Assembly: GCA_050175015.1 (NCBI GenBank) | Contig: JBFXJJ010000001.1 | Span: forward strand, 96,001 to 160,000 | Length of the DNA: 64,000 bases | DNA from: Alphaproteobacteria bacterium | GTDB lineage: Bacteria > Pseudomonadota > Alphaproteobacteria > JBFXJJ01 | Reading direction: 5' to 3' | Shown here: in pieces, positions 18,785-45,052 of the stretch | Layout: each line of letters opens with the position of its first letter | How positions within the stretch are numbered: position 1 is the stretch's first letter | Notes under the pieces: generated by a model | What the model saw: only the letters and a program-made list of their open reading frames with translations | Told to the model about the DNA's origin: nothing | Databases searched by the model: none | Made by a program: the position numbers and the translations under genes

Positions 18785-18789
18785 ATTTA

Positions 18790-18836
18790 ATTGGTGGGCG
18801 ATGGGGGACTCGAACCCACGGCCCGCTGATTAAGAG
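18790..18836 (-). repeat. att site: displaced 3' half of tRNA-Lys (47-bp direct repeat)
   Basis: ATTGGTGGGCGATGGGGGACTCGAACCCACGGCCCGCTGATTAAGAG, identical to 45051-45097; identity ends at the anticodon loop. Confidence 0.97.
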
Positions 18837-19407: not shown

Positions 19408-22400
19408 TTAATATCTTGGCCACTGATTACGCACTTCAGAAAATTCATTTGTATCCTGACAAATTTGTTTCCACACGTTAATTTCTTCAGAAATATCCTG
19501 CTCACGCTCTAAAAAATAAGAATACAGAGCATAAGCAAGGCGTGCGCTATTTTGCCGAATAAGAAGTTTATCTGCTTCTTCTTTAACTGTCGTATCGTTT
19601 TGTGGGCTTGTTTCTTTAGCTAAATATTCTAAACCCTGTAAAACTAACCGCTGAGCTGATTCATTAAGCAAATCTGGCCTTATTTTAATAGCTTCTGTTA
19701 CAAAATGCATAGATGAAGACAAAGCCAATTTTCGCCTCCAACAAACAGCTTGAGCAACGAAAGAAATCAGTCCTTCTAATTTGCTTTTTGAGAAATCAAT
19801 ATTTAATTTTTTAAGTAAAACTAACCCCGCATGTAAATTAATATTTATTGTCTCTTCATCATTTGATGCAATATTATTTGTAATCTCTGTTACTATTTCT
19901 TCTTTCCATTCAGGAAAAATATTTAAAGCTGCCACCTTTAACTGAACATTATGTAGCTCGTATATTTCTAACTCTTTAATTAACTTAGAAAGAGTCCTCT
20001 TAGTTTTAGCATCTACGATTTGATCCAAGTTAGGAATTATCATATAAAACAACACACGGATCAACGCACAAAAACGTGCTTTAAATTCGTCGTAACGAGA
20101 GCCGAAGAGCATAATTTTTTTATTTTCTTCGTTTCTTAATTCTTCTTTATCAGCATCCCACCATTCAACAAGCCTATCTAAAATTCCTTTAATATCTTTT
20201 ATGCTCCAAATTTGCTTATCTCCCAAGCCGATAAGTTCATCACAAAATTCTATTTTTCCTCTTGTTCCAGTATATGATTTATTCCCATTTGTAGTTGGTA
20301 AGGGTAATTTCAGAACGTAATTTTTTACCAGATCATTTACAAAGGTTTCTTTTGGAGAAGGCAAAGTAAGAAGAACAAATTTATAAAAATCCATATTTTC
20401 AGGAAGACCGTTATTATCGACTTTTGACCAGAGAGCTTTAGCAAAATTATTGTTTTGTTCTTCCGTTAATAGACCATATTCATGCAATTTGGCAAGTGAT
20501 ATGATTGCCCATGCTCGTCCATTTGCATTTCCTGAATCTGTATATTTGATTAATTCATTTATCTGTATTTCTGCAAATTCTGATCTAGCCCAATCTTTTA
20601 GTAAATCTTTATCAAATGTTACAAAATAAAATGGATTCATAAATTCATCTTTTGCCATATCAGAAAGATTATCCAATATGGGAAAACTTAACAATTTTGG
20701 AATCCGTTTCCACAATTCATATGGATTATAAGATTCTATTAATCTACGAACCAGATTTTTAATCCCTGCATATTTATTTTTTTGGTTGGATAAATAAATG
20801 GTTTGTAAAAAATACAACAATTGATCTTTTTTCGAGAGAGAAGCTTTAGAACAAAGACGAGAAAGAATATCAGAACCAATTTGAGCAAACAAAATGCCAA
20901 AATTAGGCTTATCATAAGTATTTCCATCTCGTATTTCGGTCTGGTTTTTCTCTAAAATATCCAAAATGAATTCAATCTGTAAATCCGTTTGCTTTTGGTC
21001 AAATTGATTGAAAAAGCTACGGCTAAAAAAATCATCGATGTTTTTTCTATCTCCACAGCGGAGTTGCACTATAAAAGCTAAATAAGGATTGTATTTATAA
21101 ATTCGTTTACATACACCATTGCCTTCTCTTATAGCAAAATTAACCATCGGTACTTTAAAAGGAGAACCTATTTCTTCAATAAAACGCAAGAACTGTTTAG
21201 CAAGAATATAGTCTTTGTCACCACGAATATCCCAATGATAACTGGACTTTATCACACCAATATCAAAATCTGTTTTCTCTATTTTTTCTCTATATATTGT
21301 AGCTTCTCGAGTTAATGCTTGGCTGAACAACAAATTCTCTATTTCAGGATCTATCCCAAATATCTTAAATTGATTCCAATGATTTTCAATATTAGAGCTG
21401 TTTTTATCTCCATAATTACCTTGTTTTGCACGAACAGAAAAAGAAACCTTTCTAAATGACCATAAAATATAAGCCTCTTGAGAAACAAGAGACAAATCAT
21501 CCTTTGTAGGTTTTAAGTTTATCTTTAAACGAATAGTATTTAACGATTGTTCTAATATGGATTGAGCTTCCTCTATGCGCCCTAACTCAGCTAATACACC
21601 TGCTCTTTTTGCCTCCCAGAAGGGTAGCGTTTCATCCTTTTTCCATTTATTAAGAGTTTTTTCAATATCAGGAACTATAAAAGTAAATAAATCTTGTAGA
21701 ACGCATTCGTAGTAAAATCTAGCTCGCTGTTCTGCCGACAAATATCCTTCTATTTTTTCTATTTTATTTTTTATCTTTTTCCATTCATTGTGCTTTCCTT
21801 TTTCCCTAAAATATCGCAGCAAAGAAAATGATAAGTAAATCCATGCATTCTTAATATCATCCCATGGAAGAGATTCATATTTTTTGTCATCATAACATAC
21901 AACCACTTCTTTTTTATGGTTAAGTAATGTTTCAAAAGGCAAATATTTTTTCAAAAGCTTTTTGATAAATTCTGCTTCATAATGATGTAATGGATACAAA
22001 CATCTCTCCAAACGCCAAACTAGCTCATACATAAATTTAATATCAGTAGGAATAGGAAATTTCTTTTCATCCGAAGATATAAACCGATGAAGTTCCGTAA
22101 ACGTTAACAACTTCTCTCGCAAGTTATGTGGCAAAATACACCATCCAGGATAATTTTCTCTGTCTTTTTTCCAAAGTGGAATAAGTTCTTTAAGTTCTTC
22201 TTTTTGATGATACTCTTTAGGCCAATTATAATTATATGGTTTCTTATACTTCAATTTTTTTAAAAAATATTCTAATGCCTTATAATGAAAATTGGATACA
22301 TTGGTGTTTGTTCTCACCTGTTGAGACAAGTCGACAACAACAATATTGCGCTTTTCAAATAGCTTATATTGAGAATGTGTTGGTCTTGATGCTGTTACCA

Positions 22401-23121
22401 AATATATTTTAGGTGAATATTCTGATGTAAAATTATCTCTTAGCCAACCTATCCACTGCAAAAAATTTGGGTCATTTGCAGAAAACCCAATAAGACACAG
22501 AGTGTTTTCTAATAAAGATTGCTGAACCGTATTAACAAAGGGTTCGAATTTTTTAGGATATTTTCTATAATCTTCTTCTGTGATAATAAAAGGTCGTATT
22601 GTAGGAAAACTTCCATGTAGTTTAATAATCCTTGGGTTATCGGCATTTTGCAGATCTTCTGTCGTCGTTACTATATCGTATTTAACTTTATTCCATGGCT
22701 TTACCTTACAAGCCCTTTCTAACAGTGTGTCATAATTTGTGGTAAAAACATCAACCCATGGCAGTTCCAAAAGTTTTGAATGCAATAGGGATGGTTCGTA
22801 TTTCAAGTCGGGGATATTGTCTGTTAGAAATTGATTTAAAACTGTTCTACCAAAAACAGCTTCTACTTCTTCCGCAAGCTTTAATACATCTAAATATCTG
22901 GATTCTTCTGGTTTGTATCCATAGAGTTTTTCATAAAACTTATCGCCTAAAGCATCCCAGCTTGGAAAAGCATTTAGATCGTCTGATGCAGCATTTTTAC
23001 TAAAACCAGCTCCAATCATTACCGCAGCATGGCCCGAATAAAGCCGATCTGCTATTTCATCAATAAGTACGTTTGTCTCATCATAAAATATGCTATCCAT
23101 ATTATCCATCGCAACACTCAA
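19408..23121 (-). CDS. Large SIR2-domain protein, defence-associated sirtuin (Dsr1-like)
   Basis: N-terminal SIR2 motifs GAGFS, TTNYD, KLHGS, IGFSANDPNF; ~950-aa helical C-terminal region; 1237 aa; island context. Confidence 0.8.
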   Translation of the reverse strand: MSVAMDNMDSIFYDETNVLIDEIADRLYSGHAAVMIGAGFSKNAASDDLNAFPSWDALGDKFYEKLYGYKPEESRYLDVLKLAEEVEAVFGRTVLNQFLTDNIPDLKYEPSLLHSKLLELPWVDVFTTNYDTLLERACKVKPWNKVKYDIVTTTEDLQNADNPRIIKLHGSFPTIRPFIITEEDYRKYPKKFEPFVNTVQQSLLENTLCLIGFSANDPNFLQWIGWLRDNFTSEYSPKIYLVTASRPTHSQYKLFEKRNIVVVDLSQQVRTNTNVSNFHYKALEYFLKKLKYKKPYNYNWPKEYHQKEELKELIPLWKKDRENYPGWCILPHNLREKLLTFTELHRFISSDEKKFPIPTDIKFMYELVWRLERCLYPLHHYEAEFIKKLLKKYLPFETLLNHKKEVVVCYDDKKYESLPWDDIKNAWIYLSFSLLRYFREKGKHNEWKKIKNKIEKIEGYLSAEQRARFYYECVLQDLFTFIVPDIEKTLNKWKKDETLPFWEAKRAGVLAELGRIEEAQSILEQSLNTIRLKINLKPTKDDLSLVSQEAYILWSFRKVSFSVRAKQGNYGDKNSSNIENHWNQFKIFGIDPEIENLLFSQALTREATIYREKIEKTDFDIGVIKSSYHWDIRGDKDYILAKQFLRFIEEIGSPFKVPMVNFAIREGNGVCKRIYKYNPYLAFIVQLRCGDRKNIDDFFSRSFFNQFDQKQTDLQIEFILDILEKNQTEIRDGNTYDKPNFGILFAQIGSDILSRLCSKASLSKKDQLLYFLQTIYLSNQKNKYAGIKNLVRRLIESYNPYELWKRIPKLLSFPILDNLSDMAKDEFMNPFYFVTFDKDLLKDWARSEFAEIQINELIKYTDSGNANGRAWAIISLAKLHEYGLLTEEQNNNFAKALWSKVDNNGLPENMDFYKFVLLTLPSPKETFVNDLVKNYVLKLPLPTTNGNKSYTGTRGKIEFCDELIGLGDKQIWSIKDIKGILDRLVEWWDADKEELRNEENKKIMLFGSRYDEFKARFCALIRVLFYMIIPNLDQIVDAKTKRTLSKLIKELEIYELHNVQLKVAALNIFPEWKEEIVTEITNNIASNDEETININLHAGLVLLKKLNIDFSKSKLEGLISFVAQAVCWRRKLALSSSMHFVTEAIKIRPDLLNESAQRLVLQGLEYLAKETSPQNDTTVKEEADKLLIRQNSARLAYALYSYFLEREQDISEEINVWKQICQDTNEFSEVRNQWPRY

Positions 23122-23631: not shown

Positions 23632-25317
23632 TTATTGCTCAATATCCTGAGTTGTATCGAAAAAGATATCTACTTCTATTTTAGGAAAAAACATAAAATC
23701 TACAAAAGATACAACCTCGTTTCCTTCCTCGTTTTCTGATATTACAAAGCCATCAAAACGGTTAAAAGTTATAGGACCAATGTGCCTTAACAATCTGCAA
23801 TATGAAAAAAAATCTTTCCCAATTTTATTAAGAAAAGTAAAATATCTTATAGAAATAATATTTTCAACGTCTTCAACAACTTTAATGTTTTCATCTTTTT
23901 CAAATTTTTCAATATCCTTCGGCGTCATTATCTTACTATTTGCCAGATATTTTTGATTTAAATCTCTAAAAAAGTCTTGGAGCCTTCTTAATAAGGTTGC
24001 ATCATTGTTTTCATAGATAGGATTTCTTCCTACTTTCTTAAAATTGTATTTGCTAATTTCTTCTGCCAATTCAGTAAATGTATATTTTTTTTCGTTGTTT
24101 TTCTCTTTTATCAAAGTTGCTATAGCTAGTATTTCTCGTAAATGCTTTTTTGTATTTAGGTTAAACACCATATTTTCTTTTTTATTTTTATCAAATACAA
24201 GAATATCTATTTCGATATTTTCTATAGGTTTTTCTTCATTGTTTTCTTTGCCATTAGGATAAATTTTAACCTCAATGTTTCCAGATATTCTTTCTATTAA
24301 CTGTTCAAAGTCTTTTTGTAATACATTAACATTCTCAAAATGATAAAATATGTTTTTTGATTCATGCAAATTATTTTTTAGATAGTCCTTAAAAGACTCA
24401 ATTTTTTCAGGGGCTTCCTCTTTTTCAAAAGGTTTTACTGAAGAAGGCCTGTTTTCAAGAATTACCTTAGAGTAACAGCTATCATAATGCGACTTTTCAT
24501 TATCTAATTTAACATAAGGAATTGTTTTAAATTTATTAAATCTACTTTTCAAAGTTGCTTCATCACCTAAAACATGAACAGAAAAACCTCTGGTATTGTC
24601 AATTTGATCTTTTATGAATTTTTTGTATGTATTATCAAGCTTTAAGCTTTGGATTGGAAAAGCGTTGTTTCCAGAGTAATCAAATACATATTTATTTCTA
24701 CCCCATAAAGAATAATTTTCCGTAAAACTAAAAATATTTTTTCTGTCATCTAACATATAAATTAACTTCCCAAGAGTAAGAAACTCCAATGACTCAAAAT
24801 CTGTTAATGTCTTTATTGAAAGCATTCTACATATTAAAATATCTACGAGTATGATTTCTTGCTGATTTTGACTCAATTTGTTGAATTCAGTTTTTGATAT
24901 TCCAATGGAGAAAAAATCATCTATAGAATACCTATCGATTTTCATATCTTTGTATAATGCTAAGAGCTCTGTTCTATTAGGAACTATAGGCCCAACCTTT
25001 TCATTTTCGTCAAAGTCTTGTGAGGTCATTTTCCCAAAACTAAGCACTTTTAAAAAATTAGCTCCAGATTGATTTTTTCGTTCCTCTTCAGGAAAATGAA
25101 CTTCATAGCGATTTAGTTCATTATATAACTCATCGATATTAGTAAAATTTTTATTAGGTGAACGTTTTAACCAAAGTCTTAATAAAATAAAAATGTTTTT
25201 TAAGCTTATTGTTTCTTCTGGATTAACAATAAACTTACTCATCTCATCAATAATATCAACCGTTGTATTTTCAGACAAATTATTAAATATCCTTCGTTTA
25301 TTCAATAATATTCGCAA
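23632..25317 (-). CDS. Hypothetical protein (561 aa)
   Basis: Long ORF; start uncertain; no recognised domain. Confidence 0.65.
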   Translation of the reverse strand: MRILLNKRRIFNNLSENTTVDIIDEMSKFIVNPEETISLKNIFILLRLWLKRSPNKNFTNIDELYNELNRYEVHFPEEERKNQSGANFLKVLSFGKMTSQDFDENEKVGPIVPNRTELLALYKDMKIDRYSIDDFFSIGISKTEFNKLSQNQQEIILVDILICRMLSIKTLTDFESLEFLTLGKLIYMLDDRKNIFSFTENYSLWGRNKYVFDYSGNNAFPIQSLKLDNTYKKFIKDQIDNTRGFSVHVLGDEATLKSRFNKFKTIPYVKLDNEKSHYDSCYSKVILENRPSSVKPFEKEEAPEKIESFKDYLKNNLHESKNIFYHFENVNVLQKDFEQLIERISGNIEVKIYPNGKENNEEKPIENIEIDILVFDKNKKENMVFNLNTKKHLREILAIATLIKEKNNEKKYTFTELAEEISKYNFKKVGRNPIYENNDATLLRRLQDFFRDLNQKYLANSKIMTPKDIEKFEKDENIKVVEDVENIISIRYFTFLNKIGKDFFSYCRLLRHIGPITFNRFDGFVISENEEGNEVVSFVDFMFFPKIEVDIFFDTTQDIEQ

Positions 25318-25485
25318 TAAATTTTAACCTACAGAAAACAATCTGTATAGAAAATTAAGTATCCCCCTTTTATCATTTTTTCCTAATTTATAAAGAAAAG
25401 CGAAAATGCAAAACCATTATTTTTGTGTGACAATTCAAGGTGTTGCCAATAGTGGTAGCAATAAATTTTTTAAACGAGGTTTTTA

Positions 25486-26190
25486 ATGACTGAAGCTAAA
25501 AGTAAATTTCTGGGCGAATTTCCCAACGAATACAATAAGTACGAATATAAGAGCAATTTTAGGTTATCAGACGATCGCCGTCATACAGCTATACTTTTAC
25601 AAGGGTTTGAGAGGTATATTAATAAAATCCCAGTTTATCATTTAAATACTATACCTAGTATTACAACAGCAAGCTTTCAACTAGGTATAGACTTTTCTGA
25701 ATATAACTTCAATGTCTTTTACGATAGGCGTGTTATGATTGAACCTAAGACTATTCAAGCCTTAGGAGAGAAGAGTTTTGAACTCTTGAAAAAAGAACTG
25801 ATACGATGTGAGGCAAGATTTATTGGAGAAAGTTACAATGATCCCAATCCAGTTTCTATAACTGATACGGGTGATGGCGTTGATAAGAAAAAAGTTGATT
25901 TCTTTGGCGAAAACCTAACTTGCTCTGTACCTATGATGAACGATGATAACCAACATCATGTAATTATTATTAAGGGTTTCAGAATGTTGCCCTCAGAATG
26001 CGAAGAATTTAATTATCAATTTTTAACTCCCGAAGGTAAATGGCAGGATGAATTCAGTGATTCTTGGGAAATTCTTGAGTATAGAGGAATCTCTTATATT
26101 GAGAAAATGATAAATAAAGGTCTTCAAATAAATCTGGCTTTTGATTTTAAAGATCATTTAGAAAAACTAACACTAGAACAATGTGCTTAA
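25486..26190 (+). CDS. Hypothetical protein (234 aa)
   Basis: GAGGT RBS; divergent from the 561-aa ORF. Confidence 0.7.
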   Translation: MTEAKSKFLGEFPNEYNKYEYKSNFRLSDDRRHTAILLQGFERYINKIPVYHLNTIPSITTASFQLGIDFSEYNFNVFYDRRVMIEPKTIQALGEKSFELLKKELIRCEARFIGESYNDPNPVSITDTGDGVDKKKVDFFGENLTCSVPMMNDDNQHHVIIIKGFRMLPSECEEFNYQFLTPEGKWQDEFSDSWEILEYRGISYIEKMINKGLQINLAFDFKDHLEKLTLEQCA

Positions 26191-26205
26191 TTCAATATGG
26201 CATAA

Positions 26206-26245
26206 ATGCAGTGAGGGGATAACCCTCACCGCATAAATTTTTTTT
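26206..26245 (+). terminator. Terminator-like hairpin upstream of the HUH gene
   Basis: ATGCAGTGAGGG-GATAA-CCCTCACCGCAT, then AAA and T8. Confidence 0.55.
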
Positions 26246-26262
26246 AATAACCTAAACAAAGG

Positions 26263-26913
26263 ATGGCCATAATGGACCAAATGAACCCCTATGCCCAAAT
26301 GGCACCAAGTCCCAGCATTATTCGCAGGAATGCTGTTCGTAGAGAACAAAATCTTTATTCAAAAACTTTTAAAAAGTTACGTGGAAGATGGAAAGATCTA
26401 AGCCCTAAAGAAGAGCTCGTAATAATTTTTAATAACATTATCAATTATAGATATTTAATATTTACTCTTGTTTTATCTATAGGCTTTACCAAAAAATTAA
26501 AAGGGTTGAGCAACAAAGAAATGACAGACCTAGTCCGCCGCAGATTGAATACTAATTTTAAAAACAACCTTGGGTATCTACCAAAAATACTGTTTATTTT
26601 AGAAGGACAAGAAAGTCAATGCCTCCATTTGCATGGTGTAATTGGACCTAAATCCGATCTCATCCTTTCACAAAAGCAAAAAGAACGGATAGCTAAAATA
26701 ATGAAAAAAACAGCCTTCGGACCTGATTACAAAAATAACCCAATGTCAAAAAATATATTGCGACTAGGAGAAGTCTATGCTCCTAAGGGATGGCTACGTT
26801 ATATGGCAAAAGACTTTAAGAACACAAAAAAAGCCATCTATTCACAATTTTATATTTGCCATGATTTAAGAAGAGAGGCTAAAAAATATTATGAAAAAAC
26901 GCTCATTTGCTAA
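26263..26913 (+). CDS. HUH endonuclease, rolling-circle Rep/relaxase-like
   Basis: RCR motifs in the correct order: I 'IFTL', II 'LE...LHLHGVI', III 'WLRYMAKD' (YxxK). Confidence 0.7.
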   Translation: MAIMDQMNPYAQMAPSPSIIRRNAVRREQNLYSKTFKKLRGRWKDLSPKEELVIIFNNIINYRYLIFTLVLSIGFTKKLKGLSNKEMTDLVRRRLNTNFKNNLGYLPKILFILEGQESQCLHLHGVIGPKSDLILSQKQKERIAKIMKKTAFGPDYKNNPMSKNILRLGEVYAPKGWLRYMAKDFKNTKKAIYSQFYICHDLRREAKKYYEKTLIC

Positions 26914-27026
26914 GAAAATACTATGTGGTGAAACATGATGTTGTAATGGAAGACGTTGTTTTGGATCCAAATCTTAAAACAAGCGAAGAATTCTTTAATG
27001 GCCTGTAAAATAACGGCTGCTAACCA

Positions 27027-27059
27027 TGATAAAGGCAACTATTACAGTTGCCTTTATCA
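27027..27059 (+). other. Perfect 14-bp stem-loop with AACTATTAC; putative nick site (dso/oriT)
   Basis: TGATAAAGGCAACT-ATTAC-AGTTGCCTTTATCA; ~110 bp downstream of the HUH gene; no adjacent U tract. Confidence 0.55.
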
Positions 27060-27180
27060 CATAAAATTGTTGTTTTTTGTGTTAACTCTTTTAACTTTAC
27101 CTGAGGGACGTTTCAAATATTTTGCCATATCGGAATCACAGCAAAACACACTCACAATTAAAGGAGTGCTTTTATATATT

Positions 27181-27204
27181 CTCTCGGAAAGGGTTGCTAC
27201 GCCC
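27181..27204 (-). promoter_or_regulatory. Second putative antisense target site (a2/b2-like)
   Basis: Plus strand CTCTCGGAAAGGGTTGCTACGCCC, near-identical to 27921-27946. Confidence 0.55.
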
Positions 27205-27328
27205 CAGTTTTACAAGTTAAAATGTAAAACCAATTTAATTATTACTAGCTCGTTTTAAAAAAGCAAATATTTTTTACTTTTTTTGTATTTGTATTTGTTT
27301 TCAAATACATATTATTACTTTGATAAAA

Positions 27329-27727
27329 CTACTTAGGATTTTTTTCACGCCACCTTCTAAACGTATCAATATCATCTCTTACTAGTTTTAAGCACAGCAT
27401 TATAACCATAGCATCATCAGCAAGACCAATAATAGGAATAAAATCAGGAATAAGGTCAATTGGGCTAAAAACGTAAAGCAAGGCAACAACCATTGCCGCA
27501 ATTGAACTCCAAGGGATTTCTGTATAAGTATTGTCCCAGTAACAAGATACCATATCAAACATAGTCTTAACATCATCAATATATTCACTTAATAAAGATG
27601 AATCTCCGACTTTGTTAATTACTTCGTCTTTGTTTTTTAGAGCTTTCTCTAAATCTTTATTAGAAATAGATGCGGCTTGCTCTTTAATAAAGCTTTCGTT
27701 GATTTGTTCTTTATAATTTTGATTCAT
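27329..27727 (-). CDS. YkvA/DUF1232 family membrane protein
   Basis: LLYVFSPIDLIPDFIPIIGLADD; start at ATG 27727 after a GAGGA RBS. Confidence 0.88.
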   Translation of the reverse strand: MNQNYKEQINESFIKEQAASISNKDLEKALKNKDEVINKVGDSSLLSEYIDDVKTMFDMVSCYWDNTYTEIPWSSIAAMVVALLYVFSPIDLIPDFIPIIGLADDAMVIMLCLKLVRDDIDTFRRWREKNPK

Positions 27728-27782
27728 TTTAATATCCTCTTGTTTGATAAAACCAAAAGACCACCAGATATAACGATCTGGC

Positions 27783-27880
27783 GGTCGGGGTGTTAGCAAC
27801 CTATCCAAGAGAAAAGGCGATCAGATTTTGGTTACAATTCAAAGATTGTAACTTGGACATATACTGATACCACCCCGACC
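27783..27880 (-). ncRNA. Structured RNA resembling phage C4/CI antisense RNAs
   Basis: Closing stem GGTCGGGGTG/CACCCCGACC; inner stems ATCAG/CTGAT and GTTACAAT/ATTGTAAC; segment CTCTTGGATAGGTTGCTA complementary to upstream and downstream sites. Confidence 0.55.
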
Positions 27881-27920
27881 ATAGATAAGGTCGAGGCGAC
27901 ATTTCTCGGCTTGTCTGCCG

Positions 27921-27946
27921 CTCTTGGAAAAAGGGTTGCTACGCCC
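27921..27946 (-). promoter_or_regulatory. First putative antisense target site (a1/b1-like)
   Basis: Minus strand GGGCGTAGCAACCCTTTTTCCAAGAG can pair with the RNA segment at 27794-27811. Confidence 0.55.
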
Positions 27947-28399
27947 TTGCTTACTTATAATTTAAGCAAGCAAAACAGATTATCTTTAAATATTGCATTT
28001 AAAGCAAGAGATTATTTCTCAATAAAACTATCATTGTAATAGAATGCGATATTCTTAACTCAAGTGTTAAGACATGCGAAGAGTTCTTTATTAGCGTATA
28101 AAATAAGTATTATATAGAATAGTAAAGAAAAATAATCAAAAAAGACAACTGTAGTAGCTTAATTTTTTTTAATCAAATTATTCATAAGCATATTAGTCAA
28201 GCAAATTGTTTATTTTAATGGTTGCATACTGTTCAATAGCTGGGATTAGTTGTTTAAAAACAAATTCATAATGTTAAATGCTTTTATACTTTCCTCATCA
28301 AAATTGTAGTTTAGCAAGATATTGCTATGAATTGTTGATTGTTATGTCATTCAATTTCAACAGCTTTCATTTATTTGTTTTCAAATTATAAGAATAGTT

Positions 28400-29251
28400 C
28401 TAACTGCCGATTATAGCAGCCTCAAATTTTTCTCTGTTTTTAATAATTACAGGAGCTTCTTTTGGGTTATCTAAAGCTTCTGCAATATCTAAACGCAGAC
28501 GTTTGCGGAAATAGTACAACAACGCACGGCGTATATTTATTCGAGAGCAGCCATCTTCCATATTGTAATCATGAGCAATAATTTTTTGCTGATTATCTCC
28601 TAACTTAGGGTTGGGAATTAGAACAACTTCAAAAGTATCATTCCACTCACTATCCTGCTGTCTTGAAACATTGGTTGCTTCTGGGTTGCGAACATCAAGG
28701 GTTCGAGAAAGAATAAAATCCTTAAATTTTTTATCGTCATGACAAAATGCTCGTGTGTGCCACCGAAGCCCATCGCTACCAAAAGCATGTGGTGTAATTC
28801 GTCGCCAAATTGGATCTGGTTTTTGATCGTTCATTGATTGATACAAGATTTCAATTGATGCTTGTTCTCTTATAGTATTTATGATTCTCTGTAAAATAGA
28901 CGAATCAATACGACGATAAGGAATAGGCATTACATCAACATAAGGAAAAACAGAAGCCTTGTTGTCTTGTTCCAAGTATAGTTGTCTTAGGTATTCGTCG
29001 GAATCTGGAGTGAAAAATTTCGGCTTAAATTCTTTTGAAGGAAAATATTTTTTTACACTCTTGTCATAACAGATGTTTTCCTGAGCCAATTCTTGATATT
29101 GGCTTAGATCTTTCGATGCCTGAGGCACTGATATATTAAAAAATTTTATAAGATCAGAGCGGTTTATTCCACCCTCCCAAAATAAACAAAACTCAATAAA
29201 TTCAAGACGTTGTTCAACACTCCAGCGAACATGTGATTTTTTGGCGACCAT
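28400..29251 (-). CDS. capW: WYL-domain transcriptional repressor, CapW/BrxR family
   Basis: 'EQRLEFIEFCLFWEGGINRSDLIKFFNISVPQASKDL' wHTH; 'RRITPHAF..DGLRWHTRAFC..FKDFILSR'; divergent from CBASS. Confidence 0.88.
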   Translation of the reverse strand: MVAKKSHVRWSVEQRLEFIEFCLFWEGGINRSDLIKFFNISVPQASKDLSQYQELAQENICYDKSVKKYFPSKEFKPKFFTPDSDEYLRQLYLEQDNKASVFPYVDVMPIPYRRIDSSILQRIINTIREQASIEILYQSMNDQKPDPIWRRITPHAFGSDGLRWHTRAFCHDDKKFKDFILSRTLDVRNPEATNVSRQQDSEWNDTFEVVLIPNPKLGDNQQKIIAHDYNMEDGCSRINIRRALLYYFRKRLRLDIAEALDNPKEAPVIIKNREKFEAAIIGS

Positions 29252-29264
29252 AAAACCTCCAATG

Positions 29265-29332
29265 AGTATATAAACTATATTGACATATAAACTATATTGA
29301 CATATAAACTATTTTCATATAGTTTATATACT
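29265..29332. promoter_or_regulatory. CBASS/capW divergent promoter with palindromic operator and 17-bp tandem duplication
   Basis: ATATAAACTAT-N6-ATAGTTTATAT at 29302-29329; TTGACA(29297)-17bp-TAGTTT; unit ATATAAACTATATTGAC present twice. Confidence 0.75.
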
Positions 29333-29371
29333 AATAAAGACAATCAGGTCAATAGCAAATTGGAGGCAGAT

Positions 29372-29605
29372 ATGTCAAAAAATGATCGATATGTAGTAAA
29401 CCACCCAGATGGTTGGGCGGTAAAAAAGTCTGGAGCGACGCGTGCAAGTGGTGTCTACGAAACACAAAAAGAAGCCATTGGTGCTGCTAAAGAAATTGTG
29501 GGGCACGCGGGTGGCGGAGAAGTCCGTATTCAGGGAACCAATGGAAAATGGCGTGATTCTGACACGGTATCTCCTGGTAACGATCCGCATCCACCCAAGG
29601 GTTAA
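29372..29605 (+). CDS. DUF2188 family small protein
   Basis: 'VV..DGWAVKKSGATRASGVYETQKEAI..A..I......V.I.G.NG..RD.D...GNDP.PPKG'; GGAGG RBS. Confidence 0.85.
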   Translation: MSKNDRYVVNHPDGWAVKKSGATRASGVYETQKEAIGAAKEIVGHAGGGEVRIQGTNGKWRDSDTVSPGNDPHPPKG

Positions 29606-29975: not shown

Positions 29976-31091
29976 ATGAGTAACAAACCTTTTCGAGTTT
30001 TAAGTTTGGATGGTGGTGGAATGAGGGGAATATATTCTGCCATTTACCTAAAAAAGCTTGCAGATTCTTGCGCAAAAAACAAGGGATTTAAGACACTTGA
30101 TATCGGCAAAGCATTTGATTTGATTGTCGGCACAAGCACCGGTGGCATCTTGGCATGTGCGCTTGCGTTTGGAGCGCCCCTTTCTAAGGTTATAGAACTG
30201 TATAGGAATGAAGGGCCTCGAATTTTTCAATCTCAACTTCCATCAGGTATTAACGTAGAACTTGGCAGGCAGCTCTTAATGCGCCCAATAGAATTAAGAA
30301 GTGGCGCGCAAGCATTAAAAAGAGCTTTGAGCCACGTTTTCTTAGGAGAAACAATGGAAAGCCTTTATGAGCGCAGGAAAATTGCTTTGGCTATTCCTTC
30401 CGTCAATATGCATACACATAGTGCGTGGGTTTTCAAAACCCCACATCTTTTAGGCAACAACGGAAGAGATAACAAATATACCCTTGTTGATGTTTGTTTG
30501 GCCACTAGTGCCGCACCGATATTCAGAAGTTTAGAAGCCATAGAAGAACCGGGTGGTTATGGAACATATCATGTCTTTACAGATGGTGGCTTGTGGGCAA
30601 ACAACCCTGTTTTAGTTGCTTTACTCGAAGCTTTGCGAATGACGGAACATGGACGTTCAATAGAAATTTTTTCTTTAGGAACATGCCCTAAACCTGTCGG
30701 TGAAAATCTGTCAAAAGAAGAAGTCAACAGAGGACTTCTTGAGTGGAAATTCGGAGGAAAAATTTCCGAGCTTTCAATAGACGCTCAGGAATTTGCATAC
30801 GATCATATGGCAAGAATGTTCGCCGGAGCAATTAATCGTCCCTGCAATATATTACGCTTTCCTACAGCAAATATTCCTCCTGATGATATAAAGTTTTTAA
30901 ACTTGGATGAAACCTCCAAAGAAGGATTAGAGGCGTTAACGCGTTTGGCTCTTCGTGATGCAGATATTGCAAATTCAAAAATTCAGGATCCAAAGAGTGA
31001 AGAAGGCGCAATGATCAAACGGTTGTTTGATGACATGCCAAAGTCAGAAAAGCCAAAGCCTTACGGCCTTGCGGTGGAATGTAATAGCTAA
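29976..31091 (+). CDS. capV: CBASS patatin-like phospholipase effector (CapV-like)
   Basis: DGGGMRG, GTSTG (GxSxG), SAAP, DGG; adjacent to the CD-NTase. Confidence 0.9.
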   Translation: MSNKPFRVLSLDGGGMRGIYSAIYLKKLADSCAKNKGFKTLDIGKAFDLIVGTSTGGILACALAFGAPLSKVIELYRNEGPRIFQSQLPSGINVELGRQLLMRPIELRSGAQALKRALSHVFLGETMESLYERRKIALAIPSVNMHTHSAWVFKTPHLLGNNGRDNKYTLVDVCLATSAAPIFRSLEAIEEPGGYGTYHVFTDGGLWANNPVLVALLEALRMTEHGRSIEIFSLGTCPKPVGENLSKEEVNRGLLEWKFGGKISELSIDAQEFAYDHMARMFAGAINRPCNILRFPTANIPPDDIKFLNLDETSKEGLEALTRLALRDADIANSKIQDPKSEEGAMIKRLFDDMPKSEKPKPYGLAVECNS

Positions 31092-31164
31092 AAATAATCC
31101 TATTTTCATAGGTCTTCTTGGGGGCCTATTAACAGCCTGTTTACTAGATGAAAAGGAATGCAAG

Positions 31165-32220
31165 ATGCTTGATTGTTCAAAAGAAATAAGAAAATTTCAT
31201 GACGAAGAGGTTACTCTTCAGTCTGCCCAACAGAATGAAATGAGAGAAAGACGAAATTCTAATCGTGATCGGCTAAAGAGTGGACTTAAAAACAATGGGA
31301 AACCAAGTCCTATATATTTACGCTCACAAGGCTCTTACGCCATGCGTACAATGGTTCAAGATGCAGAAAACGATTACGATATTGATGATGGTATGTATTT
31401 CAAACAGGAAGACCTAAAAACAAGTCAAGGCAATGACATGTCCGCATTATCCGTAAGGAACATGATTTGTGATATCATTCAGGATGAACGATTTAATAAC
31501 AAACCTGAAGTGAAGAACAATTGTGTAAGAGTTTACTATAATGACGGCTCTCATATTGATGTTCCTGCGTACCGTATAATAATAGAAAAGGATTTTTTGG
31601 GCAATGAAACAGAGAACTTTGAACTAGCCAGTTCCGATTGGAAAGCAAGCGATCCAAGAAAGGTGACAGACTGGCTAAGAGATACCGCAAAAGATAAAAG
31701 CCCAGATGATGATCCAGATCAATTCCGCAGAATCGTCCGCTTGTTAAAAGCTTTTTCAAAAAGTCGCTCAGGTTGGAAAACAGACAAAGGTGCAAGTGGC
31801 TTTACTATTACTAAGCTTACACAAGAAGTTTTTGTGGCTGCTTCAGGACGTGATGATGAATCTCTACATAAAACAATGAAAGCTATTAAACAACGCTTAG
31901 ACTTAAATTTAAGCGTTTACCATCCTGTTATCCATGGAGAAAAGCTCGCAAAAAATGATGATGTTAGAACACGTCGTTTTAAAGAACGGTTAGAACAAAA
32001 TCTGGAACATTTGAATGTTATGGATAATCCCGAATGCACGCCAGAACAAGCACTAAAGGCCTGGGGAAAAGTATTTAACAATACGGATTTCTTTGATGCC
32101 CGAATCCAAGAACGGAAAAGTGCCAACAACGCAATAGGTAGCATGGCAATTATTAAAGAAGCTGAACGGTTGAACCTTAACTCGCCTGTTAATAAACAGG
32201 GGAACAATGAATATGCCTGA
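31165..32220 (+). CDS. CBASS cGAS/DncV-like nucleotidyltransferase (CD-NTase)
   Basis: SQGSYAMRT...DYDIDDG; K..CVRVYY...HIDVPAY; SDPR; start at ATG 31165 after AAGGA. Confidence 0.92.
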   Translation: MLDCSKEIRKFHDEEVTLQSAQQNEMRERRNSNRDRLKSGLKNNGKPSPIYLRSQGSYAMRTMVQDAENDYDIDDGMYFKQEDLKTSQGNDMSALSVRNMICDIIQDERFNNKPEVKNNCVRVYYNDGSHIDVPAYRIIIEKDFLGNETENFELASSDWKASDPRKVTDWLRDTAKDKSPDDDPDQFRRIVRLLKAFSKSRSGWKTDKGASGFTITKLTQEVFVAASGRDDESLHKTMKAIKQRLDLNLSVYHPVIHGEKLAKNDDVRTRRFKERLEQNLEHLNVMDNPECTPEQALKAWGKVFNNTDFFDARIQERKSANNAIGSMAIIKEAERLNLNSPVNKQGNNEYA

Positions 32221-34051
32221 AGATGACTTGTTTTGGATCGAATTGCACAGGAAAGCAGCCAATGAAATAGAAGAATACTTTATGGCGGCGGGCTGGCATT
32301 TTATCCCTCTGAAAGATGAAGAGATAAATAAAAGCTATTCTGGGCGAAAAATTTCCTTCGGTTGGAGTTTGTTGTTTTCTTTTCCTTGTGGAACGAAAAA
32401 ACGCCTGCATTTGCTTATTGATAAAAACTTTCCTTATTCCCTTCCCCGGGTAGCATTAGAAGACAAAAGCTTTTATATGAAATGGCCTCATGTTGAAGAA
32501 GATGGCATTCTTTGTCTTGGATCAAAAAATAGCAACGCTATAGATAATAGCAATATTGCATGCATGGTTTTCGGTGCGTTTAGATCAGCTTATGAACTAA
32601 TAGAAGCTTGTCTTGACGAAAGCTGTTTTTCTGACTTTGACACAGAATTTAATTCATATTGGTGCAGAGAAGAGCACGACTCAGAGGCCTTTTTATCCCT
32701 ATTGGATGATTCCAGAAAAACGCGAAAAGTTATGTTCGCCAACGTAAAAGATAGAGTTCTTGTTTGCGACGATAAAAAACATGGACAACGCTGGATAAAC
32801 AACTTTTTTACCTTCAAACCAGAAGAGAAAGTTACCTTTAAAAAAGGAGTTTTTCTATGGCTATCTAAACCGTTAAGACCACCATATCCCAAGTCCGGAA
32901 AAGAGGTGCTTTCTTTAATAAAAGAGTGTGCGGAACAAAGCGATGCTAAAATTATAGGAGAAACTTTAAAAGATATTCCCAATACGTTTCCAATTTTTTT
33001 TGGCTTTGAAACAAAAAACGGCCCTGCATTAGGCTGTTTTTATACCGAGAGACCAAAAACAGAAAAGCTTCCTAATGGGAAAGAGATTAATCCAATAACA
33101 AACGGATTTCGTCCTGGCAAAATTCCTTTTAAAGTCATAACCACACGATATTTATCAAAGGCTGATATAAAACCAAGAAAAGTAGATAGAGTTGATCATG
33201 CTTGGTTGCATGGCAGGGCTGTAGATGAGACTTCTAATTCTATTAGAAACAAATCTGTTGCTATAATAGGGCTAGGGGCTGTTGGAAGTTTTGTCGCGGC
33301 AATACTTGTCAAAGCTGGTGTAGGAAACATAGTTCTAATTGACGACGACAAACTGTCATGGGTGAACATAGGCCGTCATGTCTTGGGTGCGCAACATGTT
33401 GGCAAATACAAGAGCCGTGCCCTATCCGAAGATTTAAGAAGAAACCATCCAAATCTCAATGTGATTTATGATGATCCATCAATTATTCAGAGTGTGTTGC
33501 TCGAAAGAATAGATGTCTTGCAAAAGTGCGATATAATAATAGACCTTACAGCCGATTGGATAGCAAAAAGTATATTGAATGAGTTTTGGCATAGAGGGAT
33601 GCTAAGCGCCCCCCTTGTTTTTGGCTGGACAGAACGCTTTGGGGTAGCAGGCCATGCTATTGCACTAATAAACAAAAATCATGGCTGTTATCAATGTGGA
33701 TGCAATTTTGATGGCGGTTTATTAAATCCCTTAACAAACTGGCCAGAGGATATGCCTGTTTTTCAAGAACCTGCCTGCGGAACTGTTTTTCAGCCTTATG
33801 GGCCTACGGAACAGGGGTTTTCTAATTCACTGATCAGCAATCTTATTATTGATGTTCTAATGAAAAACATAGAGCAGTCCGTTCATAGAGTTTGGGTTGG
33901 CCCAAAGAAAAAAATTAACCATTATCGTGGGTGTATTTCTGATGATTGGAAGGAAATAACCAAACATATAGAAGAGCATGGTGGTATTGTTTGCAGGAAT
34001 TGGGAAAGACGAAAAGATTGTCCAGTCTGCGGAAAAGGGTACACGCGATGA
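32207..34051 (+). CDS. cap2: CBASS Cap2 (E2-E1 fusion)
   Basis: E2 'WPHVEEDGILCL'; ThiF 'IIGLGAVGS', 'NIGRH'; EPACG; CYQC and CPVC. Confidence 0.9.
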   Translation: MNMPEDDLFWIELHRKAANEIEEYFMAAGWHFIPLKDEEINKSYSGRKISFGWSLLFSFPCGTKKRLHLLIDKNFPYSLPRVALEDKSFYMKWPHVEEDGILCLGSKNSNAIDNSNIACMVFGAFRSAYELIEACLDESCFSDFDTEFNSYWCREEHDSEAFLSLLDDSRKTRKVMFANVKDRVLVCDDKKHGQRWINNFFTFKPEEKVTFKKGVFLWLSKPLRPPYPKSGKEVLSLIKECAEQSDAKIIGETLKDIPNTFPIFFGFETKNGPALGCFYTERPKTEKLPNGKEINPITNGFRPGKIPFKVITTRYLSKADIKPRKVDRVDHAWLHGRAVDETSNSIRNKSVAIIGLGAVGSFVAAILVKAGVGNIVLIDDDKLSWVNIGRHVLGAQHVGKYKSRALSEDLRRNHPNLNVIYDDPSIIQSVLLERIDVLQKCDIIIDLTADWIAKSILNEFWHRGMLSAPLVFGWTERFGVAGHAIALINKNHGCYQCGCNFDGGLLNPLTNWPEDMPVFQEPACGTVFQPYGPTEQGFSNSLISNLIIDVLMKNIEQSVHRVWVGPKKKINHYRGCISDDWKEITKHIEEHGGIVCRNWERRKDCPVCGKGYTR

Positions 34052-34515
34052 TGATTTTTTGTTCTGATCAGTTGAGGCAAAAGGTTGTCTTTACAAACCG
34101 TGTAGTCAAACTGTTCAAAAAACACCAACAAACAAATGCAAAAAGCAAGGAAGCAGGGGGACAGCTTTTTGCAAGCTTTGAAAAAGATTCTGTAATCATA
34201 ATGGATGCTTCAGAGCCAAATAGACAAGATATAAGGGGTAAATATTTTTTCCATCCAAACAGAGATAGGGAAAGACAAGACATCAACATTTTTTTTAAGA
34301 AAGGCCTTCATTATGTAGGTGATTGGCACACTCATTTTGAACCAGCTCCTAATCCATCGGATAAAGACAAAGAAACTATTCGGGATTGCTTTATAAAATC
34401 AGACCATAAATTAGATAATTTTATTTTGGTTGTAGTTGGAACAGCCTGTTTCCCTGAAGGATTATCTGTCTCTATTCATAACGACAAAACATATTTGTTT
34501 TTACACAATGTTTAA
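34048..34515 (+). CDS. cap3: CBASS Cap3 JAB/MPN isopeptidase
   Basis: EAGG...DWHTHFEPAPNPSDKD (HxH..S..D); ATGA overlap with the cap2 stop. Confidence 0.9.
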   Translation: MMIFCSDQLRQKVVFTNRVVKLFKKHQQTNAKSKEAGGQLFASFEKDSVIIMDASEPNRQDIRGKYFFHPNRDRERQDINIFFKKGLHYVGDWHTHFEPAPNPSDKDKETIRDCFIKSDHKLDNFILVVVGTACFPEGLSVSIHNDKTYLFLHNV

Positions 34516-36175: not shown

Positions 36176-37345
36176 ATGGCAAAAATTAAGCTTAATGCCA
36201 ACGTAGTTGCAAAAATTAAACCAACAGGAGAAAGAAATGATAAGGAACGTTATTATTGTTCTGAAAACATAGGCCTTATGCTTGAAGTAAGAGCAACAGG
36301 AGTAAAAACATTTTATGTCAATTATCAATTACCTGATGGAACAAAACGTCAATTCAAGATAGGTAGATATCCTGAAATTTCTTTTGAGAATGCCAAGAAA
36401 AAAACTTTGGAAATTAGGGGCTTAGCTATGACAGGAGTTGACCCCACAAATTCAAGACAAAAGTCAAGGGGCACTCCATTGTTTTGTGAATTTGCGGATA
36501 CATATCTTAAACATGTTAAGGATCAAAAATCATCTTGGAAAGACGATGAATGTATTATTAGAATTTGGCTTAATCCTAATTTTGGCAGAAAGAAACTAGA
36601 CCAGATTGATACTGTTGATATTAGCCGTCTTCACAATACTATGAAACAAAGTCGTTCATCTGCTACCGCAAATAGAACGTTATCTATAATCAAGCATATG
36701 TTTAATGTTGCCATTAGCTGGGGAGAGATTAACAAAAATCCAGCAAAGGGCATTAAAAAATTTAGAGAAAACCAAAAAGAAAGATATTTGTCTGTTGAAG
36801 AAATCAAAAGACTCATGGCTGTTCTTAATGAGGAAAAAAATCACTCCATTGCATCTCTTGTTATGTTGCTATTATTTACAGGTGCCAGAAAGTCTGAAGC
36901 CCTGAAAATGAAATGGTCTGATGTTGATTTTAAAAATGCAATCTGGACAGTTCCCCAAGAGAACTCAAAATCAAGAAAAGTGAGACATATTCCTTTATCC
37001 AATATTGCGATTAGGATTTTGCAAAACATTGAGCGGGTAGAGGATTCTCCTTATGTTTTTGTTGGTAGATATGACATTTACAAACCAATGAACAGTCCTA
37101 AAAAAACTTGGTATAAGATTAGAGAACTAGCAGGATTACCAGATGTTAGGCTTCATGATTTAAGACATAGTTATGCTTCTTTGCTGGTCTCTAATGGACG
37201 TTCCTTATATGAGGTTCAAAAGATATTAGGACACAGCTCTCCTAACATGACTCAAAGATACAGTCATTTTAGCAAGGATACTCTAATAACAGCGGTTAAT
37301 TCTGTTGGCAATTCGTTAAACGACATTTTAGTTATAGAAGCCTGA
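36176..37345 (+). CDS. Tyrosine recombinase/integrase with N-terminal arm-binding domain (P4-like)
   Basis: N-domain 'GL.L.V..TG.KTF...Y......IGRYPEIS'; catalytic TGAR, K, HDLRH, LGH, TQRY all intact. Confidence 0.95.
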   Translation: MAKIKLNANVVAKIKPTGERNDKERYYCSENIGLMLEVRATGVKTFYVNYQLPDGTKRQFKIGRYPEISFENAKKKTLEIRGLAMTGVDPTNSRQKSRGTPLFCEFADTYLKHVKDQKSSWKDDECIIRIWLNPNFGRKKLDQIDTVDISRLHNTMKQSRSSATANRTLSIIKHMFNVAISWGEINKNPAKGIKKFRENQKERYLSVEEIKRLMAVLNEEKNHSIASLVMLLLFTGARKSEALKMKWSDVDFKNAIWTVPQENSKSRKVRHIPLSNIAIRILQNIERVEDSPYVFVGRYDIYKPMNSPKKTWYKIRELAGLPDVRLHDLRHSYASLLVSNGRSLYEVQKILGHSSPNMTQRYSHFSKDTLITAVNSVGNSLNDILVIEA

Positions 37346-41537: not shown

Positions 41538-42485
41538 ATGCGGTATGAAAAGTCTGAAAACATTTCAAGATTAGCAATAAAAATGCAGTCTAATGCGGAA
41601 GGTCTTTCATTGGCAGATATTCAAAATGAATTTGGGGTTAGCAGACGAACCGCAGAACGTATGCGAGATGCCGTTTTACGGCTATATCCACAATACGAAG
41701 AAATTATAGATGGCAGAAGTAAACGCTGGAGAATTCCCTATGGCAGAGTAAATAATCCTGCCCTAACGGTTGATGAATTATCATCAATTGCCAAAGCGAT
41801 AAAACTAGCAGAGGAAATTGGACGAGAAGATATTTTTAAACATCTAAAATCAGCCCAGGATAAAATCAAAGCAACCATATCGCCTGATGCAATCAGAAAA
41901 GCAGAGCCAGACATTGAAGCAATTATCGAGGCTGAAGGTTATGCTATGCGTCCTGAGCCAAAAGAAAAAATCGATACTCATATTTTGGAAACATTGGTTT
42001 ATGCTATAAAAGCCTGTCGTAAAGTTAAAGTTGAATATCTTGGAGCAAATTCAGGTAAAATAAGCTTTCAAGTAATCTATCCTTATGGATTTACCTATGG
42101 AAGTCGAAAACGTTTGGTTCTTTATAATGAATATGCCGAAGATTTTTATACTTACCGTTTAGCTAACATAAAAAAAATCAAACTGCTTGATGAATGTTTT
42201 AAAAAAGACGCCAATTTTTCTTTAAAAAAATATGTTGAACAGTCTTTCGGAGCCTTTCAAGAACCTCCTCAAAAAGTTGTTTGGAGAGCCTCTCCCGAAA
42301 TTGCAGATGATGCCAAAAATTGGCTGTTTCACCCAACACAAACCATAGAAGAACAAGCTGACGGCTCTTTACTAATCACCTTTATCGCAGGTGGTTTTTT
42401 AGAAATGGCTTGGCATCTCTATACTTGGGACGGCAAAATGGAAGTCTTGGAACCAAAAGTTTTAAGAGATATGATTGATTTTTAA
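41538..42485 (+). CDS. driD: HTH-WYL-WCX transcription factor, DriD-like
   Basis: 'MRYEK...SNAEGLSL...GVSRRTAERMRDAV..YPQ', 'PDIEA', 'W.FHPTQ...DGSLLITF.AGG..EMAWHLYTW' match my recollection of Caulobacter DriD. Confidence 0.8.
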   Translation: MRYEKSENISRLAIKMQSNAEGLSLADIQNEFGVSRRTAERMRDAVLRLYPQYEEIIDGRSKRWRIPYGRVNNPALTVDELSSIAKAIKLAEEIGREDIFKHLKSAQDKIKATISPDAIRKAEPDIEAIIEAEGYAMRPEPKEKIDTHILETLVYAIKACRKVKVEYLGANSGKISFQVIYPYGFTYGSRKRLVLYNEYAEDFYTYRLANIKKIKLLDECFKKDANFSLKKYVEQSFGAFQEPPQKVVWRASPEIADDAKNWLFHPTQTIEEQADGSLLITFIAGGFLEMAWHLYTWDGKMEVLEPKVLRDMIDF

Positions 42486-42603: not shown

Positions 42604-42636
42604 CCCCTCACGATTGACTGTGAGGGGAGTTTTTTA
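42604..42636. terminator. Terminator between convergent driD and ykvA-like genes
   Basis: CCCCTCAC-N8-GTGAGGGG followed by a T run. Confidence 0.6.
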
Positions 42637-43008
42637 ATCTTTTTCTAACCATTTTTTATATTCTTTCAGTTCATCGCTCACCATTTTTAGGCAGACTGAT
42701 ATTACTGTAATATCATCTGTATAGCCAAAAATAGGGATAAAATCTGGTATCACATCAATAGGCATTAATAAGTAAATTAAGGCAAAAACTATTACACTTA
42801 AATTATTCCAATTAATGTTTTTATAAGTTCCGTCATAGTAATCTTTTGCTAGGTTAAACATTATTTTAACATCACTAGAAACAGAAGATAATATGCCATT
42901 TAGCATAGAAAACAATCGTTCTTCCTTCGCTATTAATTTATGTAAATCTTTTTTATTAACATTATTAGATTGCTTTGTTACAAGCTTTTTAGTTTTTTCA
43001 AAATTCAT
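42634..43008 (-). CDS. YkvA/DUF1232 family membrane protein (second paralogue)
   Basis: LIYLLMPIDVIPDFIPIFGYTDD. Confidence 0.88.
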   Translation of the reverse strand: MNFEKTKKLVTKQSNNVNKKDLHKLIAKEERLFSMLNGILSSVSSDVKIMFNLAKDYYDGTYKNINWNNLSVIVFALIYLLMPIDVIPDFIPIFGYTDDITVISVCLKMVSDELKEYKKWLEKD

Positions 43009-43030: not shown

Positions 43031-43089
43031 AAAAAAAGCCTGAACAACCAAATATTCAAGCTAAATTAATGATATATGTTTTAAAGAAA
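43031..43089 (+). repeat. ~58-bp imperfect direct repeat, copy 1
   Basis: AAAAAAAGCCTGAACAACCAAATATTCAAGCTAAATTAATGATATATGTTTTAAAGAAA; matches 44634-44690. Confidence 0.85.
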
Positions 43090-43248
43090 AAATAATTACG
43101 ATTAAAAATACATTTTTTATCAGTATTCTATCTTTATTACAAGTTTCGCTATCAAAACTGGCAACAATCTCTATCTTTTCTTTAATTGACTAAGTGATAT
43201 TCTTAGTTTTAATATAGTTAAATACAATTGAATAATTCGGAGAAAGCA

Positions 43249-45050: not shown

Positions 45051-45052
45051 AT

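Follow-up and report, generated by a model that had tools for sequence, protein, structure and literature searches.

The Rep-class endonuclease gene and its product

We analysed a stretch of 64,000 nucleotides from an alphaproteobacterium (GenBank assembly GCA_050175015.1, contig JBFXJJ010000001.1, positions 96,001 to 160,000 of the forward strand; the whole stretch is called the window below), in which a preliminary description had pointed out an open reading frame (ORF) of 216 amino acids (aa) followed by a hairpin. The ORF at 26263-26913 very probably encodes an HUH endonuclease of the Rep class, as judged from sequence and a structural model, and both the gene and the hairpin lie in a genomic island carrying the antiphage defence genes DSR2 and type II CBASS. 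The principal features are as follows.

26263-26913, plus strand: predicted HUH (Rep-class) endonuclease gene, 216-aa ORF, recognised from homologues, invariant catalytic residues, an AlphaFold2 (AF2) model and Foldseek matches
26461-26469, plus strand: motif I, F67-T68-L69, on predicted strand E65-70 and matching the family consensus aFTLxFS
26626-26634, plus strand: motif II (HUH), H122-L123-H124 followed by G125, on strand E122-128; H122, H124 and G125 invariant (36/36)
26800-26811, plus strand: motif III, Y180-M-A-K183 with the putative catalytic tyrosine, on helix H174-181; Y180 and W177 invariant
27027-27059, no strand assigned: perfect 14-bp inverted repeat with the 5-nt loop ATTAC, a candidate for the cis-acting nick site or origin used by the Rep, recognised from sequence, folding and shuffled controls

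The rolling-circle replication motifs that had been reported (FTL, LHLHG and YMAK) were all read in the sequence, and their order, FTL, HLH and then a tyrosine on a helix, is that of Reps and not that of relaxases. The absence of a helicase was likewise borne out, since the 216-aa protein forms a single domain in the AF2 model and the Pfam scan returned no helicase family. The ATG at 26272, giving a protein of 213 aa, is the likelier start codon: it follows the sequence AAAGGA (26258-26263) at a distance of 8 nt, and P0001, the copy of the protein in the database, is 213 aa long.

A phmmer search of 1.84 billion representative proteins retrieved 51 proteins at E <= 1e-3, 27 of these at E <= 1e-10, the closest other than the protein itself being P0002 with 43% identity. 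The window protein was aligned with 35 of the 50 non-self matches (36 sequences), while the remaining 15, which are fragments or much longer proteins (P0018, P0033-35, P0038-40, P0042, P0044-45 and P0047-51), were left out. The alignment showed that H122, H124, G125, W177 and Y180 are invariant and that W43, S72, P107 and K183 are conserved in at least 90% of the sequences, S72 being nearly invariant. With this alignment as input, AF2 produced a model with a predicted local distance difference test score (pLDDT) of 84.8 and a predicted template-modelling score of 0.78, in which the elements follow the order beta-alpha-alpha-beta-beta-alpha-beta-alpha, with motif I and the HUH motif on strands and the tyrosine on a helix.

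Comparison of the model with known structures supported the HUH fold that had been anticipated from the motifs. The best Foldseek match in the PDB was the Rep of adeno-associated virus 5 (AAV5; 1m55, E 5.2e-4, probability 1.00), followed by the Rep of porcine circovirus 2 (PCV2), the duck circovirus Rep bound to single-stranded DNA (ssDNA) and ORF119 of Sulfolobus islandicus rod-shaped virus 1 (SIRV1). Against BFVD, 49 viral models were matched at E <= 1e-3, microvirus replication initiators and Reps of circular Rep-encoding ssDNA (CRESS-DNA) viruses among them. The structure match in the ESM Atlas was a cluster of which 97% is assigned to PF23343 (TM score 0.55).

The same family was the only one to recur in sequence searches, always under the cut-off. 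PF23343 (REP_ORF2-G2P) was the sole Pfam match of the window Rep, with E 0.003 and 18.2 bits under a gathering cut-off of 27.8, and covered the HUH region; it was found at E < 0.01 in 6 of the 36 family members (best 0.0006) and at sub-threshold level in 5 of the 13 longer relatives scanned, none of which carries a helicase family. NCBIfam, PHROGs and PADLOC held no family for the window Rep, the Rep_1, Rep_2, Rep_trans and relaxase models of Pfam and NCBIfam did not match it, and searches of PDB sequences with the protein and with the family profile gave nothing meaningful. A word-indexed protein search recovered the window Rep alone, or five proteins, one of them in NCBI, when seeded with the family profile. 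No match of the window Rep was found by tblastn in 72,556 plasmid records or in phages, nor of P0002 in the plasmid records; P0041 matched one hypothetical 400-aa gene on a Gemmobacter plasmid, the surroundings of which held no informative hairpin. The window DNA at 25400-27400 and at 18800-43700 also matched no plasmid. No paper on PF23343 or on this Rep family was found in the literature searched. By its sequence and predicted fold, the window Rep is an intact, single-domain, helicase-less member of a rare and unnamed family, a distant sister of PF23343, which comprises the ORF2/G2P Reps of microviruses and inoviruses.

The hairpin downstream of the Rep gene

The hairpin conforms to its earlier description as a perfect 14-bp stem about 110 bp downstream of the ORF with a nonamer at its apex. 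Its arms (27027-27040 and 27046-27059) are complementary at 14 of 14 positions, the stem begins 113 nt past the Rep stop codon, and the nonamer AACTATTAC occupies 27037-27045. The window contains two perfect hairpins with a stem of at least 14 bp, compared with an expectation of 0.03 based on 30 Markov shuffles, and folding of the region as ssDNA gave z = -4.68; the hairpin is no chance feature. In 400,000 random 14-5-14 hairpins of the same base composition the T^A junction of the nonamer fell in the loop in 0.22%.

Nor does the hairpin resemble a terminator. The statement that no U tract flanks it is right for the adjacent bases, where each strand has 3 T among its first 10 nt, while a T6 run (27073-27078) lies 13 nt past the stem. 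A consensus terminator scan did not call it terminator-like on either strand, and its G+C content of 33% and its 3 T are unlike the 52-62% and the 7-8 T in 10 nt of the clear island terminators at 26206, 35016 and 37757. Rfam returned nothing at 25000-29500. A 100-aa ORF (26956-27258) that spans the hairpin belongs to no Pfam family and was treated as spurious. GC skew was discarded as evidence of an origin, since it follows gene orientation.

Relatives of the Rep in small tRNA-Val islands

A genome scan seeded with the window Rep and its two closest relatives found no relative. When seeded with the one Rep clade present in NCBI, the scan returned six loci (L001-L006) in metagenome-assembled genomes of uncultured alphaproteobacteria, with Reps that are 28-32% identical to the window Rep; L002 and L006 come from gut or rumen bacteria. 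All six carry a tyrosine integrase about 0.9 kb upstream of the Rep gene. The genes between the two were inspected in L002, L003 and L006, where an ORF of 178-196 aa overlaps or abuts the integrase end and a 74-aa ORF stands just before the Rep gene; the latter, scanned in L002 only, showed a weak sub-cut-off match to HTH_17 (AlpA-like helix-turn-helix, HTH). In L002, L003 and L006 the islands are delimited by direct repeats of the tRNA-Val 3' end and measure 6,426 bp, about 7.9-8.0 kb and 7,833 bp, respectively. Their cargo varies by locus: L002 carries an AAA_15/AAA_21 ATPase, and HTH proteins are encoded in L006. The Rep relatives are thus backbone genes of small tRNA-integrated islands composed of integrase, ORF, AlpA-like HTH gene and Rep.

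A stem-loop of 43 nt, with a 13-bp stem and a 17-nt loop, begins 1-2 nt past the Rep stop codon in five of the six loci, at the following positions.

L002, 6665-6707: 43-nt stem-loop
L003, 6665-6707: 43-nt stem-loop
L004, 3140-3182: 43-nt stem-loop
L005, 6665-6707: 43-nt stem-loop
L006, 6662-6704: 43-nt stem-loop

The Reps of L002 and L006 show 47% identity to the query clade. These two loci share 40 of the 43 nt (93%) of the stem-loop, compared with 55% identity in the Rep gene, 65% in the integrase gene and 16% in the next 200 nt, and among their three stem-loop differences is one compensated base pair. At the stem-loop the conserved backbone gives way to the variable cargo. The element outlasts the neighbouring genes and is therefore most simply a cis-acting site. 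An inner hairpin of the L002 element is terminator-like on the minus strand, and this inner pairing is lost in L006. Rfam detected nothing but tRNAs in L001, L002 and L006 and has no family for the stem-loop.

In L001 (6664-6788) the sequence diverges exactly at the first base of the stem; a short hairpin and further DNA, both rich in G+C, stand there instead, up to the contig end 128 nt on. The divergence could reflect an insertion or a cargo swap at the position of the stem-loop.

The island around the Rep gene

The 26-kb island of which the preliminary description spoke was confirmed as an element bounded by tRNA-Lys and 51-nt direct repeats and carrying a tyrosine integrase. The two repeats are identical at 50 of 51 positions with a spacing of 26,261 bp. 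Island features other than the Rep gene and its hairpin are given below.

18786-18836, no strand assigned: left direct repeat, a copy of the tRNA-Lys 3' end (repeat comparison)
19408-23121: DSR2, full length (PADLOC, E = 0, 1235 bits)
26206-26245, plus strand: intrinsic terminator of the upstream 234-aa ORF, with 12-bp arms (one mismatch) and loop GATAA (26206-26234), then T8
27329-27808, minus strand: DUF1232 gene, convergent with the Rep gene
28400-29251: WYL regulator gene
29976-34515: type II CBASS operon with patatin effector, CD-NTase, E1/E2 and JAB genes
36176-37345, plus strand: tyrosine integrase (Pfam Phage_integrase, E 4.8e-33), sharing 25-28% identity with the Rep-linked integrases of L001-L006
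37462-37670, plus strand: AlpA/excisionase-like HTH_17 gene, broken at an A-run into two reading frames (N-terminal piece matching HTH_17 at E 0.001, sub-cut-off)
45047-45128, minus strand: tRNA-Lys (45053-45128) with the right direct repeat (45047-45097), from tRNA and repeat calls

Further island genes code for a DEDDh exonuclease, a second WYL-WCX regulator and a second DUF1232 protein. No virion genes were detected in the island. The two ORFs upstream of the Rep gene (234 aa and 561 aa) are orphans with no Pfam, NCBIfam or PHROGs family, and the 234-aa ORF had no match in the Atlas and no homologue but itself; an hhalign comparison with the 178-aa ORF of the relatives gave a probability of 0.4%. 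The flanks of the island have about 33% G+C. They include an ankyrin-repeat protein whose NCBIfam matches are to Dot/Icm Ank effector models only, far under the cut-off.

The island contains two pairs of a DUF1232 gene and a WYL regulator gene, at 27329-27808 with 28400-29251 and at 41538-42482 with 42634-43008. The exact 17-nt direct repeat AAAGGGTTGCTACGCCC (27188-27204 and 27930-27946) brackets the first DUF1232 gene, its second copy forming a small hairpin. A 17-nt unit in tandem (29268-29301), followed by an 11-bp palindrome (29302-29329), lies within and immediately beyond the gap that separates the WYL regulator gene from the DUF2188/CBASS operon and overlaps the listed start (29297) of the DUF2188 ORF; it looks like the operator of the WYL regulator. 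At the tRNA-Lys end, a gene for a Zn-dependent phospholipase-C-like protein (43228-44175, Pfam E 1.6e-17) and a 142-aa ORF adjoin the island boundary and are bracketed by a 53-nt direct repeat with 77% identity (43032-43084 and 44634-44686).

Comparison with known replication systems

The nearest family, PF23343, which includes microvirus proteins such as SpV4 ORF2 and inovirus G2P, is akin to the window Rep in the sequence match over the HUH region and in the microvirus initiators found as structural neighbours. It differs in that the window Rep scores below the gathering cut-off, is shorter than the microvirus initiators in BFVD (263-388 aa) and is encoded in a chromosomal island.

The preliminary description had called the nonamer of the hairpin CRESS-type, a label that is not supported. 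The likeness to the Reps of circoviruses, geminiviruses and nanoviruses consists of the HUH fold, with the PCV2 and duck circovirus nuclease domains among the best PDB matches, and of the string NANTATTAC at the hairpin apex. In CRESS origins the nonamer lies entirely within a loop of about 9-13 nt. The window Rep differs in having no superfamily 3 helicase and a nearest family that is PF23343, matched under threshold; its hairpin has a 5-nt loop with four nonamer bases paired, is accompanied by no iterons and carries a nonamer that is not kept beside the six relatives. The resemblance of the hairpin to the CRESS nonamer is at most convergence, with no evidence of kinship.

Minimal rolling-circle plasmid Reps such as pMV158 RepB and pC194 RepA are likewise helicase-less HUH proteins of about 200 aa, which nick a hairpin site and use a host helicase. 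The window Rep, unlike these, is chromosomal and linked to an integrase, and matched neither Rep_1, Rep_2 or Rep_trans nor any plasmid in the tblastn search. Actinomycete elements of the pSAM2 type and integrated filamentous phages combine a tyrosine integrase with an HUH initiator and excise as a circle; in the window island no transfer or virion genes were seen, the Rep is of another family and the cargo is DSR2 and type II CBASS.

The gene order of the relatives recalls the phage-inducible chromosomal minimalist islands (PICMI), a satellite whose layout is int, iolg, alpA and primase, with integration by fis (PMC10803314). The islands of the relatives resemble PICMI in their size (6.4-8 kb) and in their succession of integrase, integrase-end ORF, AlpA-like HTH gene, replication gene and variable cargo, and they differ in having an HUH Rep for the primase and tRNA-Val for fis. 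The window differs from PICMI further, the Rep gene being apart from the integrase in an island of 26 kb, where a stretch of 9-10 kb separates it from the integrase gene and the broken AlpA-like gene.

Proposed mechanism and alternative explanations

The explanation that best accounts for these data overall, to which we give slightly better than an even chance, is that the Rep nicks a cognate hairpin and thereby starts rolling-circle copying of the excised island or of an ancestral mini-island. The integrase would excise the 26-kb DSR2 and CBASS island, or an ancestral mini-island now embedded in it. The Rep would bind its hairpin, possibly extruded from supercoiled DNA, and cut one strand by means of Tyr180 and a metal bound by His122 and His124, a putative catalysis suggested by sequence and model, while remaining linked to the DNA through Tyr180. 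Cleavage would fall, less securely, in or beside the ATTAC loop of the hairpin at 27027-27059. A host helicase and polymerase would then extend the 3'-OH round the circle, and the Rep would rejoin the displaced strand. A role of the Rep in island replication or ssDNA processing is fairly probable in itself.

Support for the hairpin as the site of the Rep comes from its position next to the Rep gene, from the hairpin kept by the Rep family, from its unlikeness to the island terminators and from the improbability by chance of a nonamer at its apex. The conservation of a stem-loop in five of the six relatives makes a cis hairpin beside this Rep family plausible, and the finding of the relatives' Reps in small integrative islands, each as a rule with this strongly conserved element, makes a module of Rep and cis hairpin plausible as well. 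The nonamer, whose conservation beside homologues had been considered, does not accompany this element: NANTATTAC was found in a hairpin within 1.5 kb of the Rep gene in none of the six loci.

This last result is one of several that weigh against the explanation. The stem-loop of the relatives differs from the window hairpin in sequence, in loop length (17 against 5 nt) and in abutting the stop codon rather than standing 113 nt away, its loop motif is absent from the window, and L001, with a Rep 99-100% identical to those of L002 and P0052, is without it. As had been noted earlier, only 5 nt of the nonamer (ATTAC) are looped, the bases AACT being paired in the 14-bp stem, and such a loop gives an HUH active site little ssDNA. 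The window holds 19 matches to NANTATTAC, where 14.25 +/- 3.8 would be expected in this AT-rich DNA, and one of the 19 lies in a hairpin loop (483 hairpins with a stem of at least 6 bp); the nonamer is common by itself, while its apex placement is unusual. No iterons were found: direct repeats in 26850-27350 do not exceed 10 nt, and the stem is free of tandem repeats; the two longest direct repeats in this interval flank the 3' side of the hairpin only and are 150 and 188 bp apart. A second copy of the half-site was also not found, the 13 occurrences with up to 3 mismatches comparing with 12.25 expected and the exact ones being the two arms only.

The setting of the Rep gene adds to these objections. 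A distance of 9.3 kb separates the Rep gene from the integrase gene, which lies mid-island, and the AlpA-like gene carries a frameshift, its N-terminal 40 aa ending at a stop codon and its C-terminal part (GPKYARF...) lying in another frame; given this split, excision of the island may be impaired or dependent on slippage. Only 26 nt separate the terminator at 26206-26245 from the probable Rep start, and the sole promoter-like match between the two (26244-26273, 9/12) overlaps the start codon, so that expression of the Rep may depend on read-through of the upstream terminator. Weighing all this, we consider it possible, at somewhat less than an even chance, that the perfect 14-bp hairpin at 27027-27059 is the nick site of the Rep.

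Four other explanations were considered. The Rep may be real and the hairpin merely a transcript-end element, that is, a non-canonical or bidirectional terminator or an RNA-stability hairpin, with a coincidental apex nonamer. The hairpin does occupy the usual place of a terminator, the 415-bp gap between the convergent Rep (plus) and DUF1232 (minus) genes, with the T6 run 13 nt downstream, and the frequency of the nonamer in the window and its absence beside all six relatives fit a coincidence; its failure in the consensus scan, its base composition and the 0.22% chance of the apex placement oppose this, and we regard the explanation as rather doubtful. We hold it to be unlikely that the Rep and hairpin are a relic, no longer driving replication, of a small island or plasmid with a Rep gene that the larger defence island captured or with which it fused. 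The full-length Rep ORF with all invariant residues intact, the confident model and the undecayed stem (14/14 bp) argue against a relic, which would nevertheless agree with the dispersal of genes that adjoin the Rep in relatives (integrase and AlpA-like gene, here distant and frameshifted, respectively), with the terminator directly upstream and promoter-like match over the start codon, and with the orphan ORFs that precede the gene.

The Rep could instead be a relaxase and the hairpin an origin of transfer (oriT), in an integrative mobilisable element hitching on a conjugative system. Some integrative elements employ an HUH Rep-like protein as their relaxase, for which MOB_T / Rep_trans is the precedent (bioRxiv 10.64898/2026.01.13.699239), and no helicase or primase is encoded in the island itself. 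The window Rep matched no Rep_trans or relaxase family, the island has no coupling protein or mating-pair genes, and a weak, sub-cut-off match of L006 to a terminase small subunit (GP3_package, E 2.4e-5), if real, points to phage rather than conjugative transfer; a relaxase is accordingly improbable. Least probable, indeed very unlikely, is that the 33-bp perfect palindrome serves as a double-stranded site for a dimeric regulator or recombinase unrelated to the Rep. Its perfect dyad symmetry is what such a site would have, and the island does contain the operator-like palindrome at 29302-29329 in a gap between regulator and operon; the hairpin, by comparison, sits at gene 3' ends and not in a promoter region, and the half-site counts given above reveal no further copies.

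Significance for island biology

The analysis adds a family of very small HUH initiators that is recognisable and yet named by no curated library. In the window, the Rep finding points to the likeliest candidate for a replication module of the DSR2/CBASS island; it shows no link to CRESS-DNA viruses.

A wider proposal, which we rate as a long shot, is that helicase-less HUH Reps of this family, each with a cognate stem-loop origin, define a class of minimalist integrative islands and that one such module has been built into the 26-kb DSR2 and CBASS island of the window. In that case, excision set off by phage would be followed by amplification of the defence genes through rolling-circle copying, and the resulting ssDNA could act on the WYL regulators. 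If true, the class would consist of integrase, integrase-end ORF, AlpA-like HTH gene, Rep, origin and defence cargo, which amounts to the PICMI layout with a rolling-circle initiator for the primase. For the replication or mobilisation of genomic and defence islands after excision, the Rep with its stem-loop offers a concrete candidate pair of protein and site.

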